Virus record (IMG/VR): IMGVR_UViG_2660238126_000006
Length of the DNA: 7,172 nucleotides
Reading direction: 5' to 3' (one strand)
Origin: a virus
Lineage: Duplodnaviria > Heunggongvirae > Uroviricota > Caudoviricetes
Made by a program: the position numbers and the translations under genes. The notes below the pieces were generated by a model, which was given only the letters and a program-made list of their open reading frames with translations, did no database searches and was not told the origin of the DNA. Below are positions 870 to 7,172 of the stretch, piece after piece. How positions within the stretch are numbered: position 1 is the stretch's first letter; each line of letters opens with the position of its first letter.

Positions 870-1190
870 GCTTCAACGTGCTTGTCGGTCACCAGCAGGT
901 TCAGCTTACGCTTGGACATCACAGTGTATTCCAGATTCAGGCGCGAGAATTCGTACAGGGTAATGTGATGCTGTAGGTATTCACGCCTTAATAACCCCCT
1001 CTTTCAGCCAGATAACCTGTGTTCTCGCCATACCTTCCAGCGCGCATTCTTTTGCATATGCAGCATCGACTTGCTTGGCATGCCCTTTACCGGCAATCTT
1101 CTGTATGCGCTAAACCTAGATAGAATCCACTCTGTGCACATTGAAGCCCCCTCTATGCTTCCTTTCAGGTATTGAAGGGATTGAGATGGG
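870..1190 (-). other. Unassigned segment with two orphan ORF ends: a C-terminal fragment (981-1109, ...[37 protein letters not shown]) and a gene start (870-919, [17 protein letters not shown]...) cut at the guaD breakpoint
   Basis: Minus-strand reading only. Stops in all three minus frames at ~1105-1130. About 65 nt separate the stop at 981-983 from the ATG at 917-919. I could not recognise either product. Confidence 0.3.
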
Positions 1191-1538
1191 CTAAGCATTA
1201 TTGGCCTCCTGCATCAGGAGAAAGACAATCATGGCGGCGCGGAGAGGTCTGGTATCAAATATTGGGCTTACGCCTTTTGCATCCACACACCATTCAGTTA
1301 ACTGGTCTAAGATAGAAATCCTGTATTTCTCAATAATCGGCCATGAAGCGCTCGGATCATTGCAGTAGTCAGGCAAAGGGTTTAATGGCTCAAGACTTAC
1401 ATCGGCATTTCCGTAATACCATTTGTTGGTGTTATTCCCTGATGTTTCAGGCTTACATGCCCAAAGGCCTTTAAAAATTATGTCTCCTACCATTCGGTTA
1501 ATTTCAAAATCACTTAACTGTGAATAATCCATTGTCAT
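1191..1538 (-). CDS. nin-region protein, NinX-like (P22-type), function unknown
   Basis: 115-codon ORF ([34 protein letters not shown]...). Its ATG overlaps the ninE stop as ATGA (1535-1538), and the position directly after ninE matches the P22 nin gene order. Family name is from memory, not a search. Confidence 0.6.
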
Positions 1539-1711
1539 TTCCTCGCACGATGTCTTAGCCACCGGATATCCCACAGGTGAGCCGTGTAGTTGAAGGTTTT
1601 TACGTCAGATTCTTTTGGGATTGGCTTGCGTTTATTTCTGGAGCGTTTCGTTGGAAGGTATTTGCAGTTTTCGCAGATGATGTCGGTGAAACTTCGTCGC
1701 TGTCGCCTCAT
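1535..1711 (-). CDS. ninE: NinE
   Basis: [58 protein letters not shown] is near-identical to lambda NinE as I recall it. Start overlaps the methyltransferase stop as ATGA at 1708-1711. Confidence 0.85.
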
Positions 1712-2235
1712 GCCGCCCTCCTGACGCCCTGCCCGATCGCCATCAATGCCGCTTTGGATACGGTAGTAAACATCCGTCGAGGACTGATGAACGGTCGCCA
1801 AATCAGCAGCATGGAGCCTTTGCTGTTTCCCTTCTTCTCCAGCCCTGTCGATGGTTCGATAAAATTAATCCGTCCATCAGTGATAATGCGAACTTCGTCG
1901 ACACTCTCCAGAGCCTTGCTGAACCATCCGACTGACATATCCTCTGGCACAAGCATAACTACCGTCTGTCGCTGTTGTATGCACTGCTCAGCGGCTTTTT
2001 TCACCCACGGCCTGATATTGCTGTACGGTGGGTTATTCCAGATTGCACCGTGGCTTACCCACTCAGAATTGAGCGCGTCGTCGGCCTCAGTTAGCCAGTG
2101 AGCACACAGAGCATTTTTGTCGCTCGCTGCCGAATCCAGCCAGAATCCAAACTCAATATCCAGTGCATCAAAAAGCCAAAGCGGCGTTTGCCAGCAGTCC
2201 TTGTCGTGTGCTGGCGTATTTGATTTGATAGTCAT
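1708..2235 (-). CDS. Phage Dam-family N6-adenine DNA methyltransferase (orphan; no restriction partner in window)
   Basis: 175 aa from [48 protein letters not shown]...[18 protein letters not shown]. The NPPY motif (motif IV) and overall pattern fit phage Dam-type methyltransferases. Start overlaps ninB stop as ATGA (2232-2235). The longer upstream ORF start at 2295 was rejected in favour of the coupled ATG. Confidence 0.8.
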
Positions 2236-2672
2236 GCAGCCCGATCTCCCCATCTCGCTTTCCATTCCAGAGCCAGTCTCGCTTCGTCTGACCACTTAAC
2301 GCCACGCTCTGTACCGAATGCCTGTATAAGCTCTAATAGCTCCGCAAATTCGCCTACACGCATCCTGCTGGTTGACTGGCCTATTACCACAAAGCCATTC
2401 CCGGCAAGGTTAGGAACAACATCCTGCTGCTTTAATGCTGCGGTAAACACACACTTCCAGCTTTCTGCATCTAGCCAGCGACCATGCCATTCAACCTGAC
2501 GAGAGACGTCACCTAAGCAGGCCCATAGCTTCCTGTTTTGGTCTAAGCTGCGGTTGCGTTCCTGAATGGTTACTACGATTGGTTTGGTTGGGTCTGGAAG
2601 GATTTGCTGTACTGCGTGAATAGCGTTTTGCTGATGTGCTGGAGATCGAATTTCAAAGGTTAGTTTTTTCAT
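2232..2672 (-). CDS. ninB: NinB (Orf recombination mediator)
   Basis: MKKLTFEIRSPAHQQNAIHAVQQILPDPTKPIVVTIQERNRSLDQNRKLWACLGDV... is essentially lambda NinB. A GGGGGAGAGGGAAG RBS precedes the ATG. Confidence 0.9.
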   Translation of the reverse strand: MKKLTFEIRSPAHQQNAIHAVQQILPDPTKPIVVTIQERNRSLDQNRKLWACLGDVSRQVEWHGRWLDAESWKCVFTAALKQQDVVPNLAGNGFVVIGQSTSRMRVGEFAELLELIQAFGTERGVKWSDEARLALEWKARWGDRAA

Positions 2673-2687
2673 GACTTCCCTCTCCCC

Positions 2688-2720
2688 CAAATAAAAAGGC
2701 CTGCGATTACCAGCAGGCCT
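2688..2720 (-). terminator. Intrinsic terminator tR2 (lambda-type), between ren and ninB
   Basis: On the minus strand: AGGCCTGC-TGGTAATC-GCAGGCCT hairpin followed by TTTTTATTT. Matches the lambda tR2 sequence as I recall it. Confidence 0.8.
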
Positions 2721-2745
2721 GTTATTAGCTCAGTAATGTAGATGG

Positions 2746-3036
2746 TCATCTTTTAACTCCATATACCGCCAATACCCGTTTCATCGCGGCACTCTGGCGA
2801 CACTCCTTAAAAATCAGGTTCGTGCTCATCTTTCCTTCCCGTTCTTCCCTGGTAGCAAACCGGTAATACACCGTTCGCCAGACCTTACCTTCGATAACCA
2901 GAAGACCTGCCCGTGCCATTTTAGCCGCGGCCTGATTTATGCTGGTTACTGTTGCGCCTGTTGCCGCAGCTACATCCGGCGCGCAGAAAGTCCGGTGCGT
3001 TTTCAGGTAGTGAAGAATTACCTCTTTGCCTGTCAT
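2746..3036 (-). CDS. ren: Ren (Rex exclusion escape protein)
   Basis: 96 aa, MTGKEVILHYLKTHRTFCAPDVAAATGATVTSINQAAAKMARAGLLVIEGKVWRTVYYRFATREEREGKMSTNL..., near-identical to lambda Ren. ATG overlaps the P stop as ATGA (3033-3036). Confidence 0.9.
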   Translation of the reverse strand: MTGKEVILHYLKTHRTFCAPDVAAATGATVTSINQAAAKMARAGLLVIEGKVWRTVYYRFATREEREGKMSTNLIFKECRQSAAMKRVLAVYGVKR

Positions 3037-3734
3037 ACACTGGCTCCTTTCAGTCCGAACTTAGCTTTGATTTCTGCGATCTTCGCCAGAGCCTGTGCAC
3101 GATTTAGAGGTCTACCGCCCATGACAGGAAGTTGTTTTACTGGTTCAGGGATCGCCTCACCACGGTTAATTCGCGCTGTCATACAGGTCAGTTCATCGGC
3201 AGCCTTGCGCCGTAATTCCGCATCAGTAAGCGCATTGGCCCGCATGTTCTGATACAGGTTGGTAACCAGCCAGTAGTGCGCGTTTGATTTCCACGGATAA
3301 GACTCCGCATCCGGATACAGGCCTCGCTTCCGGCAATACTCGTAAACCATATCAACCAGCTCGCTGACGTTTGGCAGTCCGGCGATAACGGATGCTTCTT
3401 CCCGGCACCATGCAACAAACTGCCCGGGTGATGGCAGAAATGGTCGATTCTGCCGACGGGCTACGCGCATTCCTGCGTTAACCTGTTCCATCGTGGTGAT
3501 CCCGTTTTCCCGAAAAGCCAGAACCCACTGGCGACGGATTTCGTTCACTTCGTTCTGGTCACGGTTAGCCAGGCTCGCCGGGAAAGTTGCCAGTAACTGG
3601 CTGAACACACCGTTGATGATCTGCGCTACCTGCTGTACCTGCGGCTTTTCGTCGTACTGTTCCGGCATGTTGTTGGCGATCCGGCGCATCTGCTCACGGT
3701 CAAAGTTAACCATCTGTGCGGCGATGTTTTTCAT
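3033..3734 (-). CDS. P: Replication protein P (DnaB helicase loader)
   Basis: 233 aa, MKNIAAQMVNFDREQMRRIANNMPEQYDEKPQVQQVAQIINGVFSQLL..., essentially lambda P. ATG overlaps the O stop as ATGA (3731-3734). Confidence 0.95.
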   Translation of the reverse strand: MKNIAAQMVNFDREQMRRIANNMPEQYDEKPQVQQVAQIINGVFSQLLATFPASLANRDQNEVNEIRRQWVLAFRENGITTMEQVNAGMRVARRQNRPFLPSPGQFVAWCREEASVIAGLPNVSELVDMVYEYCRKRGLYPDAESYPWKSNAHYWLVTNLYQNMRANALTDAELRRKAADELTCMTARINRGEAIPEPVKQLPVMGGRPLNRAQALAKIAEIKAKFGLKGASV

Positions 3735-4630
3735 AGATCCACCCCGTAAATCCAGTCTGTGTTTGTCAGGTCGAGTTTTGGTTTGCTGGCTGTCACGACT
3801 GCCTGTTGCTTGTTACGGTTGATTTCGAGCTGGGTCCACTTGTCGCGGAGTTTGGCCGGGCTAAGCACGTTACCGGACCAGAAGTTGTCCTGGCATGCCC
3901 AGCGGAACAGCACGCACATGTCGCGGTGGTTACGTCCGTCACGTTCACGCATCAGGCGGATATCGTTAGCCCACCCTGCAAAATTCGGTTTTCTGGCTGA
4001 TGGCGCGATGGTCTTCACCATGTCAAACATCCACTCTGCGGCGGTCAGGTCTTCTGCTGTCCCCCACTTGCTGCCGCTCTGAATTGCAGCATCCGGTTTC
4101 ACCACAGAAAGGTCGTTTTCTGGCTGGTCAGAGGATTCGCCAGAATTCTCGGACGAATAATCTTTTCTTTTTTCTTTTGTAATAGTGTCTTTTGTGTCCC
4201 CCTGTTTTGAGGGATAGCAATCCCCCAATTTGAGGGATGTTTTATCCCTCGTTTTAGGGGATTTTCCCTCGTTTTGAGGGATACACCATTCTGAGATGTT
4301 TTTATTTGGTCCAAACATGCCGCCTTGCTGCTTGATAATATTCATTCTGACGAGTTCTAACTTGGCTTCATTGCACCGTTTGACAGGTAACTTTGTAATC
4401 TCGCTAAGTTGAGAATCGGTGATTCTGTCCATTGGTTTATTCCACCCATAGGTTTTACGCAGAATGGCAAGCAGCACTTTAAACTGTCGCTTGGTCAGAT
4501 CTGCGCCCGAATAAGCCTCAAGCAGCATATTTGATAGTCTGGCGTAACCATCATCGAGATCTGCCACATTACGCTCCTGTCCGGCAAAGTTACCTCTGCC
4601 GAAGTTGAGTATTTTTGCTGTATTTGTCAT
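3731..4630 (-). CDS. O: Replication initiator protein O
   Basis: 299 aa, MTNTAKILNFGRGNFAGQERNVADLDDGYARLSNMLLEAY..., essentially lambda O. The ori iterons sit inside the gene. Confidence 0.95.
   Translation of the reverse strand: MTNTAKILNFGRGNFAGQERNVADLDDGYARLSNMLLEAYSGADLTKRQFKVLLAILRKTYGWNKPMDRITDSQLSEITKLPVKRCNEAKLELVRMNIIKQQGGMFGPNKNISEWCIPQNEGKSPKTRDKTSLKLGDCYPSKQGDTKDTITKEKRKDYSSENSGESSDQPENDLSVVKPDAAIQSGSKWGTAEDLTAAEWMFDMVKTIAPSARKPNFAGWANDIRLMRERDGRNHRDMCVLFRWACQDNFWSGNVLSPAKLRDKWTQLEINRNKQQAVVTASKPKLDLTNTDWIYGVDL
4151..4282. other. ori-lambda: four ~19-20 bp iterons (4195-4282) plus adjacent AT-rich unwinding region (4151-4194), inside O
   Basis: Four tandem copies of the palindromic motif TCCCTC-N-GAGGGA (for example tccctcgttttgaggga), flanked by cttttcttttttcttttgtaatagtgtcttttgtg. 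An EcoRI site is at 4142. Confidence 0.9.
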
Positions 4631-4641
4631 AATGACTCCTG
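4605..4641 (+). promoter_or_regulatory. pO promoter for oop RNA (-35 TTGAGT 4605-4610, -10 CATAAT 4628-4633, 17-bp spacer)
   Basis: Hexamers and spacing read directly from the sequence. The -10 overlaps the O start codon on the opposite strand, as in lambda. Confidence 0.6.
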
Positions 4642-4717
4642 TTGATAGATCCAGTAATGACCTCAGAACTCCATCTGGATTTGTTCAGAACGCTCGGTTG
4701 CCGCCGGGCGTTTTTTA
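4641..4717 (+). ncRNA. oop: oop antisense RNA (77 nt), overlapping the cII 3' end, ending at the to terminator
   Basis: gttgatagatccagtaatgacctcagaactccatctggatttgttcagaacgctcggttgccgccgggcgttttttat matches lambda oop as I recall it. A GC-rich hairpin plus T6 ends it at 4692-4717. Confidence 0.75.
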
Positions 4718-4956
4718 TTGGTGAGAATCGCAGCAACTTGTCGCGCCAATCGAGCCATGTCGTCGTCAACGACCCCCCATTCAAGAACAGCAAGCAGCAT
4801 TGAGAACTTGGGAATCCAGTCTCTCTTCCACCTGCTGATCTGCGACTTATCAACTCCCACAGCTTCCGCTGTCTTCTCAGTTCCAAGCATTGCGATTTTG
4901 TTAAGCAACGCACTCTCGATTCGTAGTGCCTCGTTGCGTTTGTTTGCACGAACCAT
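4663..4956 (-). CDS. cII: Transcriptional activator cII
   Basis: 97 aa, MVRANKRNEALRIESALLNKIAMLGTEKTAEAVGVDKSQISRWKRDWIPKFSMLLAVLEWGVVDDDMARLARQVAAILTNKKRPAATERSEQIQMEF. TAAGGAAATACTTACAT precedes the ATG. The longer ORF from 5016 was rejected. Confidence 0.95.
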   Translation of the reverse strand: MVRANKRNEALRIESALLNKIAMLGTEKTAEAVGVDKSQISRWKRDWIPKFSMLLAVLEWGVVDDDMARLARQVAAILTNKKRPAATERSEQIQMEF

Positions 4957-4973
4957 ATGTAAGTATTTCCTTA
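4934..4973 (+). promoter_or_regulatory. pRE (cII-dependent promoter) with TTGC-N6-TTGC cII-binding repeats at 4934-4947
   Basis: TTGCGTTTGTTTGC lies on the + strand opposite the cII start, with AAGTAT as the -10 candidate at 4961-4966. In this window pRE points into the cro stub and the breakpoint; no cI is present. Confidence 0.65.
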
Positions 4974-5035
4974 GATAACAATTGATTGAATGTATGCAAA
5001 TAAATGCATACACCATAGGTGTGGTTTAATTGGAT

Positions 5036-5067
5036 GCCCTTTTTCAGGGCTGTGATGTGTAAGAGCG
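5036..5067 (-). promoter_or_regulatory. nutR (boxB hairpin 5036-5050, boxA 5060-5067)
   Basis: The minus strand reads CGCTCTTA (boxA) ... GCCCTGAAAAAGGGC (boxB stem-loop). Rho-dependent tR1 would lie in 4957-5035 but cannot be confirmed from sequence. Confidence 0.75.
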
Positions 5068-5074
5068 GTGTTAT

Positions 5075-5143
5075 TTATGCTGTTGTTTTTTTGTTACTCG
5101 GGAAGGGCTTTACCTCTTCCGCATAAACGCTTCCATCTGCGTN
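5075..5143 (-). pseudogene. cro: cro C-terminal stub (last ~22 codons only), truncated at breakpoint with N at 5143
   Basis: The minus strand reads ...ADGSVYAEEVKPFPSNKKTTA* up to the stop at 5075-5077. Upstream of 5143 the sequence no longer matches cro; there is no cro N-terminus, OR, pR or cI. Confidence 0.75.
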
Positions 5144-5270: not shown

Positions 5271-5277
5271 NGTGAAN

Positions 5278-5667
5278 GACACCACCGGAGCTGGTTGCAT
5301 CGGCAGTTGCCGTGTACTGAACCAGATCATCGCGCTGAATAACACTCCCGGCGGTCACCTTCAGGCCATCGCTGACACCTTCCCAGCGCATATACCCGCT
5401 GGCAGCCGTGGCCCCCTTGCGCGGACACCGTTTCATCGCAGCATGTCGCGCCAGCCAGGACTCATCGCACAGGTCAGGCAGCATGTTCATTGCCAGATAA
5501 TCGATGTAACCGTAAACCGTATGCAGCGCCGCCGCATACACCTTTGCCCGCACGTCTTCATCCATGCGCCGGAGCGTGTCGCTGACGTCCAGCCTGGCGA
5601 ATAAATCGTTACGGAGCATACTGATATTTTCTGCCAGCGTCGGGCGCTGAAATTCACTGTCCGCCAT
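5278..5667 (-). CDS. Baseplate J-like (Mu gp47 / P2 gpJ family) protein, N-terminal ~130 codons; 3' part lost at breakpoint near 5271-5277
   Basis: MADSEFQRPTLAENISMLRNDLFARLDVSD...HTVYGYIDYLAMNMLPDLCDESWLARHAAMKRCPRKGATAASGYMRWEGVSDGLKVTAGSVIQRDDLVQYTATADAT fits the baseplate-J N-terminal pattern (RPTL, YGY.D..A...LPD, LARHA, RK.A). Overlaps the gp46 stop by 14 nt. Confidence 0.65.
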
Positions 5668-6082
5668 GCGTTATCGCACTCCACAGATCATCAAAAGAAA
5701 TCATTACCGGTCCGTCACGACGCCAGAGAGTGATACTGTTACCCAGTTCATTAATCCCGGTGCGGCGGATATCCAGATCAATACGGGACACCACACCGTC
5801 ATCAATCATCCATTGCAGGCATTCGCGGATATACCCCCTTACCGTCTGCACCAGCTGATTGGTCAGTTTGCCGCGCTGAAGCAGCCACAGCCGGGAGCCG
5901 TAACGGTCATTCTGTACCGCAGGCCAGGTATCCCCCCACCATCCCATCGGGACGTCGGCATTGTCATCAGGCTCCGCCCGCCGCCAGGTGAACAGGGAAA
6001 TCACCACGGCGCGGGTCAGCGGATCCAGCGGTGCGCTGGCGCAGGTGCGTTTACCGTTCACCGTCAGCCACAGTTCCATCAT
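5654..6082 (-). CDS. Phage GP46-family baseplate protein (Mu gp46-like)
   Basis: 142 aa containing ISLFTWRRAEPDD, GWWGDTWP and GSRLWLLQRGKLT, the motifs I associate with the GP46 family. ATG overlaps the upstream gene stop as ATGA at 6079-6082. Confidence 0.7.
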   Translation of the reverse strand: MMELWLTVNGKRTCASAPLDPLTRAVVISLFTWRRAEPDDNADVPMGWWGDTWPAVQNDRYGSRLWLLQRGKLTNQLVQTVRGYIRECLQWMIDDGVVSRIDLDIRRTGINELGNSITLWRRDGPVMISFDDLWSAITHGGQ

Positions 6083-6447
6083 GCCTCCATCGCTTTATCC
6101 GGTTTGTCGGTGTTACTGCCCTGACCGTTCTCTCTGTGACGATGGCCGTTATAGGCAAGCCGCATCGCTGACATGGTGGTGCCGCCGGAGTCGCACAGGT
6201 CTTTCACCTGTCCGGTCACTTCCAGGTCCATTTCAAAACGTGCTCTGGGCGCATTGCGAAACGTGATCGTTTTACCTGCACCGTCCACCACGATCCCCTC
6301 CCGGGTCAGCGTCACAGACTGCCCCTGATCGTCATAGACAGCCACCTCACCCGTCTGCAGCCCTTTCAGGCGGTAGCGCCGGTCCGACACCGTAACAACC
6401 ACCGCATGAGAACGGTCGCCATCCGGAAACAACACCACCGCTTCCGC
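6079..6447 (-). CDS. Baseplate assembly protein V-like (spike), C-terminal ~122 codons; 5' end lost at breakpoint with N's at 6448/6450
   Basis: ...GLQTGEVAVYDDQGQSVTLTREGIVVDGAGKTITFRNAPRARFEMDLEVTGQVKDLCDSGGTTMSAMRLAYNGHRHRENG... is gpV-like, and its position before GP46 and J matches the Mu-type baseplate order. The first 9 codons of the track ORF are beyond the breakpoint. Confidence 0.55.
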   Translation of the reverse strand, partial: AEAVVLFPDGDRSHAVVVTVSDRRYRLKGLQTGEVAVYDDQGQSVTLTREGIVVDGAGKTITFRNAPRARFEMDLEVTGQVKDLCDSGGTTMSAMRLAYNGHRHRENGQGSNTDKPDKAMEA

Positions 6448-6450
6448 NCN

Positions 6451-6575
6451 TCGGCACCTGCAATTACTGCACATACGGTGAGAAACAAAATAGCAGATAA
6501 TTTATGTTTAACCTTTCCTTGTTGTCGTATATCAGGGATCACTGAAATATAATCAAGCAAACTTTGAATACTCAC
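6451..6575 (-). mobile_element. ISAs1-family (H-repeat-associated) transposase, N-terminal 41 codons only, GTG start
   Basis: (V/M)SIQSLLDYISVIPDIRQQGKVKHKLSAILFLTVCAVIAGA matches the conserved N-terminus of E. coli H-rpt/ISAs1 transposases as I recall it. AGGA lies ~6 nt upstream of the GTG. Truncated at the N's. Confidence 0.7.
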
Positions 6576-6646
6576 CTGGGTCCTTTTTTATCTTTTTAGT
6601 TATTCCAAAGGTTAAATTTTGATCACCTGTAGGCGTTAAAGCCAAG

Positions 6647-6678
6647 ATGAAAATCGTGATTTACATCACAATTTTCAT
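6647..6678. repeat. 32-bp imperfect palindrome: ATGAAAATCGTGAT-TTAC-ATCACAATTTTCAT (14-bp arms, one mismatch, 4-bp spacer)
   Basis: Read directly from the sequence. It lies between the AT-rich ORF stop (6756) and the H-rpt start (6575). No U-tract follows on either strand, so it does not look like a canonical intrinsic terminator. Confidence 0.8.
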
Positions 6679-6755
6679 GATCTTGCCCTGCCCCGTCCCT
6701 TGCTCTCATGTCTTTCTGTATGTATTTTATATTTTTCTCTTTCTGGTGTTGTTCA

Positions 6756-7172
<417 letters not shown>

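Follow-up and report, generated by a model that had tools for sequence, protein, structure and literature searches.

A putative GATC-methylating orphan adenine methyltransferase in the ninC/ninD slot of a lambdoid phage fragment

We analysed a 7,172-nucleotide stretch of DNA from the IMG/VR virus record IMGVR_UViG_2660238126_000006 (Caudoviricetes), referred to below as the window, with respect to one of its genes, dam, which lies on the minus strand at 1708..2235 (stop codon included) and codes for a phage-type DNA N6-adenine methyltransferase of 175 amino acids. The assignment draws on the open reading frame itself, on the profiles PF05869, TIGR01712 and PHROG 111, and on identity to the protein NP_050531 of phage VT2-Sakai. 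Taken together with a published account of the latter protein, the sequence makes it highly probable that dam is a standard lambdoid-phage gene, whose product is an S-adenosylmethionine (SAM)-dependent DNA N6-adenine methyltransferase for GATC without a partner endonuclease.

According to the six-frame list of open reading frames, dam starts with ATG at 2235..2233 and its product reads MTIKSNTP...NNPPYSN...GVRRAA; the frame closes with TGA at 1710..1708 and is full length, with zero frameshifts or internal stops. The ninB stop and the dam ATG overlap as ATGA, and likewise the dam TGA and the ninE ATG (1711..1709) overlap as ATGA, a type of packing that has been described for all lambdoid nin regions (PMC8022706). 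An earlier interpretation of this DNA from its letters alone (the sequence-only reading) had placed a 175-residue frame with an NPPY motif at 1708-2235 and had named its flanking genes; the frame list, the sequence and the Pfam matches bear out its coordinates, length, motif and flanks alike. We considered and rejected a 195-residue form initiating at GTG 2295, which overlaps ninB by 60 nucleotides, extends beyond the profile match and is unannotated in any record seen. The Pfam match to the 175-residue form begins at residue 4, and the RefSeq annotation corresponds to the 528-nucleotide form. A short way before the dam ATG, a GATC site at 2243-2246 falls within the Shine-Dalgarno/spacer region (minus-strand context GGAGATCGGGCTGCATG); the equivalent in lambda, upstream of ninC, reads GACA, and the GATC of the window may have arisen by chance.

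In profile searches the protein matched PF05869 ("DNA N-6-adenine-methyltransferase (Dam)") over profile positions 1-167 of 169 (e-value = 3.4e-65; 219.3 bits against a cut-off of 28.1), the NCBIfam equivalog TIGR01712 ("phage N-6-adenine-methyltransferase") over positions 1-165 of 165 (265.3 bits against a cut-off of 97.05) and PHROG 111 ("DNA methyltransferase"; e-value = 7e-88), and by its predicted fold it belongs to the class-I SAM-dependent methyltransferases. The full-length match to PF05869 and the TIGR01712 score support the N6-adenine methyltransferase proposed in the sequence-only reading. Its label "Dam-family" holds for the phage profile that bears the name Dam but not for the family of the host Dam, to which the protein has no such Pfam match. 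In an alignment with 45 homologues (59-98% identity), residues N68, P69, P70 and Y71 are invariant, as are D34, A36 and K80, and A37 is present in 39 of the 45. The first four constitute the NPPY catalytic motif (motif IV; 2023..2034, minus strand; codons AAC CCA CCG TAC, 2034..2023), which follows a predicted strand at residues 64-67. N-terminal to it, the segment FWLDSAAS at residues 31-38 (2122..2145, minus strand) is, from its conservation and a modelled strand at 31-34, a candidate motif-I-like SAM-binding loop after the first core strand, and the fold matches described below suggest that it is the cofactor loop.

A confident AlphaFold2 model using the 45 homologues (predicted local distance difference test score 88.6; predicted template modelling score 0.87) begins with a short N-terminal helical part bearing the conserved WQTP, and continues with the core strand 31-34, the LDSAAS loop, a long loop and the strand 64-67 that runs into NPPY; the remainder comprises alternating helices and strands, as in a Rossmann-like methyltransferase, and closes with a C-terminal helix. 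Structural comparison was based on this predicted model because a sequence search of the PDB returned nothing meaningful (best e-value = 0.19). The nearest folds are those of the N6-adenine enzymes PCIF1 and M.TaqI, of which PCIF1, the best solved structural neighbor, is an RNA enzyme. No separate target- or DNA-recognition domain is seen in the model of the 175-residue protein, which, going by this prediction, is a minimal gamma-like class-I N6-adenine methyltransferase core. The gamma-class M.TaqI shares its motif order, with the cofactor loop preceding NPPY, whereas the dam product is without the separate target-recognition domain. If the enzyme works as M.TaqI and its relatives do, it would flip the target adenine into the NPPY pocket and methylate it with SAM as the donor. 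There is a slim chance that an enzyme of this kind, devoid of a recognition domain, acts as a dimer, needs a partner or has a second physiological substrate, e.g. RNA; were this true, its effect might be on prophage induction and go beyond simple protection of DNA.

With respect to specificity, the dam protein is identical at 174 of 175 positions to the VT2-Sakai orf32 product (NP_050531; REBASE-type name M.EcoVT2Dam), the sole difference being E79K. Column 79 is variable among the homologues (E, I, L, R or D), next to the invariant K80, and the substitution is probably harmless to judge from this alignment. The GATC specificity of M.EcoVT2Dam reportedly goes back to an assay of the cloned gene by Radlinska and Bujnicki in 2001. 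A paper citing that work calls M.EcoVT2Dam an orphan enzyme and describes it as "known to target 5'-GATC-3'" (PMC6602927). Because of the 99.4% identity to M.EcoVT2Dam and this reported specificity, we infer that the protein would form N6-methyladenine in GATC sites of DNA. The sequence-only reading had held the specificity to be unreadable from the sequence, a view that is too cautious if the near-identical relative is taken as a guide.

A blastn comparison with lambda 38000-44600 aligned window positions 2232-5142 with lambda 41084..38174 at 98.0% identity and positions 1538-1704 with lambda ninE at 97% identity. The 527 bases between both matches are without a lambda counterpart and take the slot that in lambda is filled by ninC and ninD (lambda 41081-42123). 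The ninB ends of the window and lambda share ...GGGCTGCATGA and diverge at once after it, similarity resuming at ninE codon 2 or 3. This gap, together with the Pfam-identified flanks, upholds the earlier placement of dam in the lambda ninC/ninD slot between ninB and ninE. The substitution of dam for ninC and ninD looks like a clean replacement of one module by another along gene boundaries, as is usual in lambdoid mosaics, and dam would have been acquired through ordinary mosaic exchange of this kind, with lambda-type junctions exactly at the ATGA gene boundaries. The lambda ninC/ninD pair occupies the same slot, with both borders at ATGA or adjoining gene boundaries, but shows no similarity to dam: NinC is a protein of 290 residues resembling 3'-phosphoadenosine-5'-phosphosulfate reductase, and NinD has 57 residues.

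On the upstream side of dam lies ninB (orf; 2232..2672, minus strand; PF05772, e-value = 2e-54), coding for a recombination mediator that is identical to lambda NinB at all 146 of 146 positions. On the downstream side it is followed by ninE (1535..1711, minus strand; PF05322, e-value = 4e-43), in which lambda homology resumes at 1704. Next after ninE, Pfam identifies not lambda ninF but a P22-type ninX (DUF2591; 1191..1532, minus strand; PF10765, e-value = 2e-16), annotated in E. coli STE15 as "phage protein NinX family protein". All these genes belong to a lambdoid early-right-operon fragment (956..5142, minus strand), delimited by matches to the STE15 prophage and to phages, that comprises the start of rusA, a DUF1364 remnant, ninX, ninE, dam, ninB, ren, P, O, cII and the 3' end of cro. 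At the protein level, identity to lambda amounts to 97/97 for cII, 299/299 or 298/299 for O and about 230/233 for P; less similar are Ren (about 89/96, ~93%) and NinE (52-53/58, ~90%). The earlier description of the block from cro to ninB as lambda-like is thus supported by the blastn match over 2232-5142, except that cro is not whole: its last 21 codons alone are present, the phage piece breaking off at an N at position 5143. Between ren and ninB a pattern scan detected a terminator-like hairpin with a T run (2697..2720, minus strand), which lies within the 98% lambda-identical block and sits at what we take to be the position of lambda tR2. A pattern scan also detected a strong terminator-like hairpin of 12 pairs with a T run at 4687-4714 (plus strand), antisense to the end of cII and presumably at the position of the lambda oop RNA terminator. 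Beyond ninX the nin region is degraded (window 956-1190; locus L001, 2667-3115): in the STE15 prophage the DUF1364 gene is annotated as incomplete and is followed by rusA, the lambdoid piece in the window breaks off after the first 29 bases of rusA, and the 64-residue reading frame at 1004-1198 has no Pfam match.

The 528-bp gene was recovered at >=95% identity, i.e. at least that value, from 244 phage records, among them lambda-like isolates, HK544, Sf6, Sf101 and many Shiga toxin (Stx) phages. Gene, position and likely specificity are already known from RefSeq, Pfam, NCBIfam, literature derived from REBASE and dozens of papers on phage genomes, and as a discovery the locus has little significance. 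The gene is also found, at the same identity threshold, in 1,566 of 5,426 complete E. coli genomes (about 29%), with up to five copies per genome. Among the records listed, the E. coli annotation is "phage N-6-adenine-methyltransferase", between NinB and NinE. The entire 4.2 kb at 956-5142 is present over its full length at 98% identity in phages mEp332, ev243 and ev099, and gives a single 98.7% match to the E. coli STE15 prophage. The protein family is represented in 2,143 of 50,697 phage records, including T1-like, Vibrio, lactococcal and Gordonia phages. In Serratia prophages (L005-L007; gene at 4001-4528) a 73%-identical dam occupies the same nin-region slot, with DUF1367 in place of NinB before it and an unrelated reading frame of 66-67 residues in place of NinE after it, and co-occurs with replication modules of either the lambda-P type or the primase/helicase type. 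Since the Serratia dam holds the same slot among different neighbors, the methylase can be regarded as an independent module of the nin region. Certain database entries (P0002, P0005, P0011, P0013, P0023, P0038 and P0084) show the Dam domain fused to NinE, CII, NinB, RusA-like, holin or antiterminator Q domains (148-240 residues); most are from single contigs, and they probably reflect frameshifts or chimeric assemblies, not genuine fusions.

The window as a whole is pieced together from unlinked E. coli fragments and has the look of a chimeric or scaffolded assembly, not of a real locus. It opens with a fragment of an AMP-binding enzyme (FadD-like; 1-606), followed by a run of N's (607-616) and a guaD fragment (617-870). 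Beyond the lambdoid piece come Mu-type baseplate genes (GP46, baseplate J and gp45/V; 5278-6447), which match as one block, a transposase-associated fragment (DDE_Tnp_1-associated; 6451-6575), an AT-rich stretch with 30-35% G+C (6500-7000) and a thiolase C-terminal fragment (6954-7172). The joins lie near 607-616, 870-955, 5143, 5271-5277, 6448-6450, about 6600 and about 6950, with single N's at or near several of them (5143, 5271, 5277, 6448 and 6450), and a one-place match covering 80% of the window was found in none of the 5,426 complete E. coli genomes.

The gene order offers clues to the expression of dam, which is co-oriented with cII-O-P-ren-ninB, would be translationally coupled to ninB and ninE, and lies downstream of the tR2-like terminator. 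Given this nin-region position, the coupling and the terminator upstream, dam would be expected to yield a delayed-early pR product after N antitermination, made mainly in lytic growth or upon induction and little in the repressed prophage. The dam product of Phi24B, 100% identical to the VT2-Sakai protein, has been detected in lysogen cultures, and the level of its transcript changed significantly upon induction (PMC3342100). As for function, lambda and P22 virion DNA is known to be under-methylated by the host Dam, "possibly because replication outstrips modification" (PMC8022706), and a phage Dam could top up GATC methylation on the fast-replicating phage DNA that the host enzyme leaves under-methylated. 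Closing this methylation gap appears to be the most economical role for the protein. Progeny genomes that are fully methylated in this way would be protected from GATC-cutting, methylation-sensitive restriction in new hosts and would be able to undergo normal Dam-dependent processes. The enzyme may also contribute to GATC-dependent control of lysogeny; the authors of the Phi24B study suggested that its Dam may supplement the Dam of the host, on which stable 933W lysogeny depends (PMC3342100).

Several observations weigh against such an enzyme and role. The biological role is one that we infer, and E. coli hosts already carry Dam; moreover, the literature searched yielded no phenotype of a dam-deleted or knockout lambdoid phage. 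The phage piece contains 14 GATC sites as against 15.8 expected, so that neither avoidance nor enrichment of GATC is seen in it and there is no hint of selection either way. On the side of specificity, the allele of the window differs from the cloned enzyme at residue 79, and GATC as the target is known second-hand, through the citing paper (PMC6602927). In addition, over-produced Dam-like enzymes can methylate off-target (PMC10810198), which matters here since the M.EcoVT2Dam assay used a cloned gene.

One might ask whether the physiological substrate is something other than GATC in DNA: the enzyme might act on RNA, or on DNA with a different or looser specificity, and a partner protein, for instance NinE with its translational coupling to dam, might direct it. 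The overlap of the dam stop with the ninE start would suit the latter version, and an RNA enzyme as the best solved structural neighbor and a protein with no recognizable target-recognition domain would suit the idea in general. A precedent also exists in an MT-A70 (M.EcoGV-like) enzyme of an Stx prophage, annotated as a GATC Dam, that a 2023 study found to methylate 16S rRNA when paired with a small partner (PMC10810198). Enzymes of this type (M.EcoGV and M.EcoPA8orf6770P, the "Dam homologue" of Stx prophages) are likewise prophage-borne and annotated as GATC adenine methyltransferases, but they are members of the MT-A70 family with DPPW, are encoded at the left end of the prophage, need the partner PNB-2 and prefer 16S rRNA (PMC10810198). 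The window protein, in contrast, gave no MT-A70 Pfam match, has NPPY rather than DPPW and is encoded at a different locus. We accordingly rejected the notion that the rRNA methyltransferase overturns the annotation of dam: being a different gene of a different family, at the other prophage end, it serves as a caution only, and we consider a substrate other than GATC in DNA unlikely.

The remaining alternatives concern the state of the gene and its possible partner. That dam might be a decaying or inactive prophage remnant without current function is suggested by decay in the surrounding prophage piece, where the downstream DUF1364 gene is truncated in the closest genome, and by the patchwork nature of the window with its N's; yet the dam frame is intact, 99.4% identical to the gene of viable phages, and keeps all family-invariant residues. 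With just 4.2 kb of phage visible, dam could also be conceived as the modification half of a restriction-modification system with its endonuclease outside the window. The sequence-only reading had instead called it an orphan methylase without an endonuclease, and within the window all its neighbors are indeed nin, replication or recombination genes. No nuclease gene adjoins dam in the complete genome of VT2-Sakai or in the STE15 and Serratia prophages either, and PMC6602927 treats the enzyme as an orphan. Because the frame is intact, the invariant residues are conserved and the carrier phages are without an adjacent nuclease, we regard an inactive remnant as very unlikely and a hidden restriction partner as extremely so.

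An orphan GATC methyltransferase of this type invites comparison with the other enzymes known as Dam. E. coli Dam and T4 Dam are alpha-class enzymes (MethyltransfD12), to which Pfam indicates no relationship, no family other than PF05869 being matched by the window protein at e-values up to 0.01. Their overlap with the model is confined to the Rossmann core (about 108 aligned residues, about 10% identity), and they carry DPPY, have their motifs in permuted order and contain an inserted DNA-recognition domain, whereas the window protein has NPPY and no such domain. The GATC specificity that the phage protein would have in common with E. coli/T4 Dam is best read as convergence, a view of the shared specificity that reportedly was put forward by Bujnicki et al. 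in 2001. Phage T1 Dam, which methylates GATC and with which the Dam of Haemophilus phages HP1/HP2 is grouped, belongs to the same PF05869 and is 34% identical to the window protein over 158 residues, the WxTP, LDAAAS, NPPYS and NxKGS blocks being common to both. It differs in its length of 237 residues, being extended at the N-terminus and carrying an insertion ahead of the last strands, and comes from a virulent phage with a different genomic context. Closest of all are the dam genes of Phi24B, HK97, Sf6, HK544, Sf101, CP-933V and others, which are identical or near-identical to the M.EcoVT2Dam type. M.EcoVT2Dam itself, from the Stx2 phage VT2-Sakai, has the same length, the same ninB-dam-ninE position and the same overlaps as the gene of the window, although the backbone of VT2-Sakai carries an O/DnaB-like replication module and the phage of the window the lambda-type O/P.
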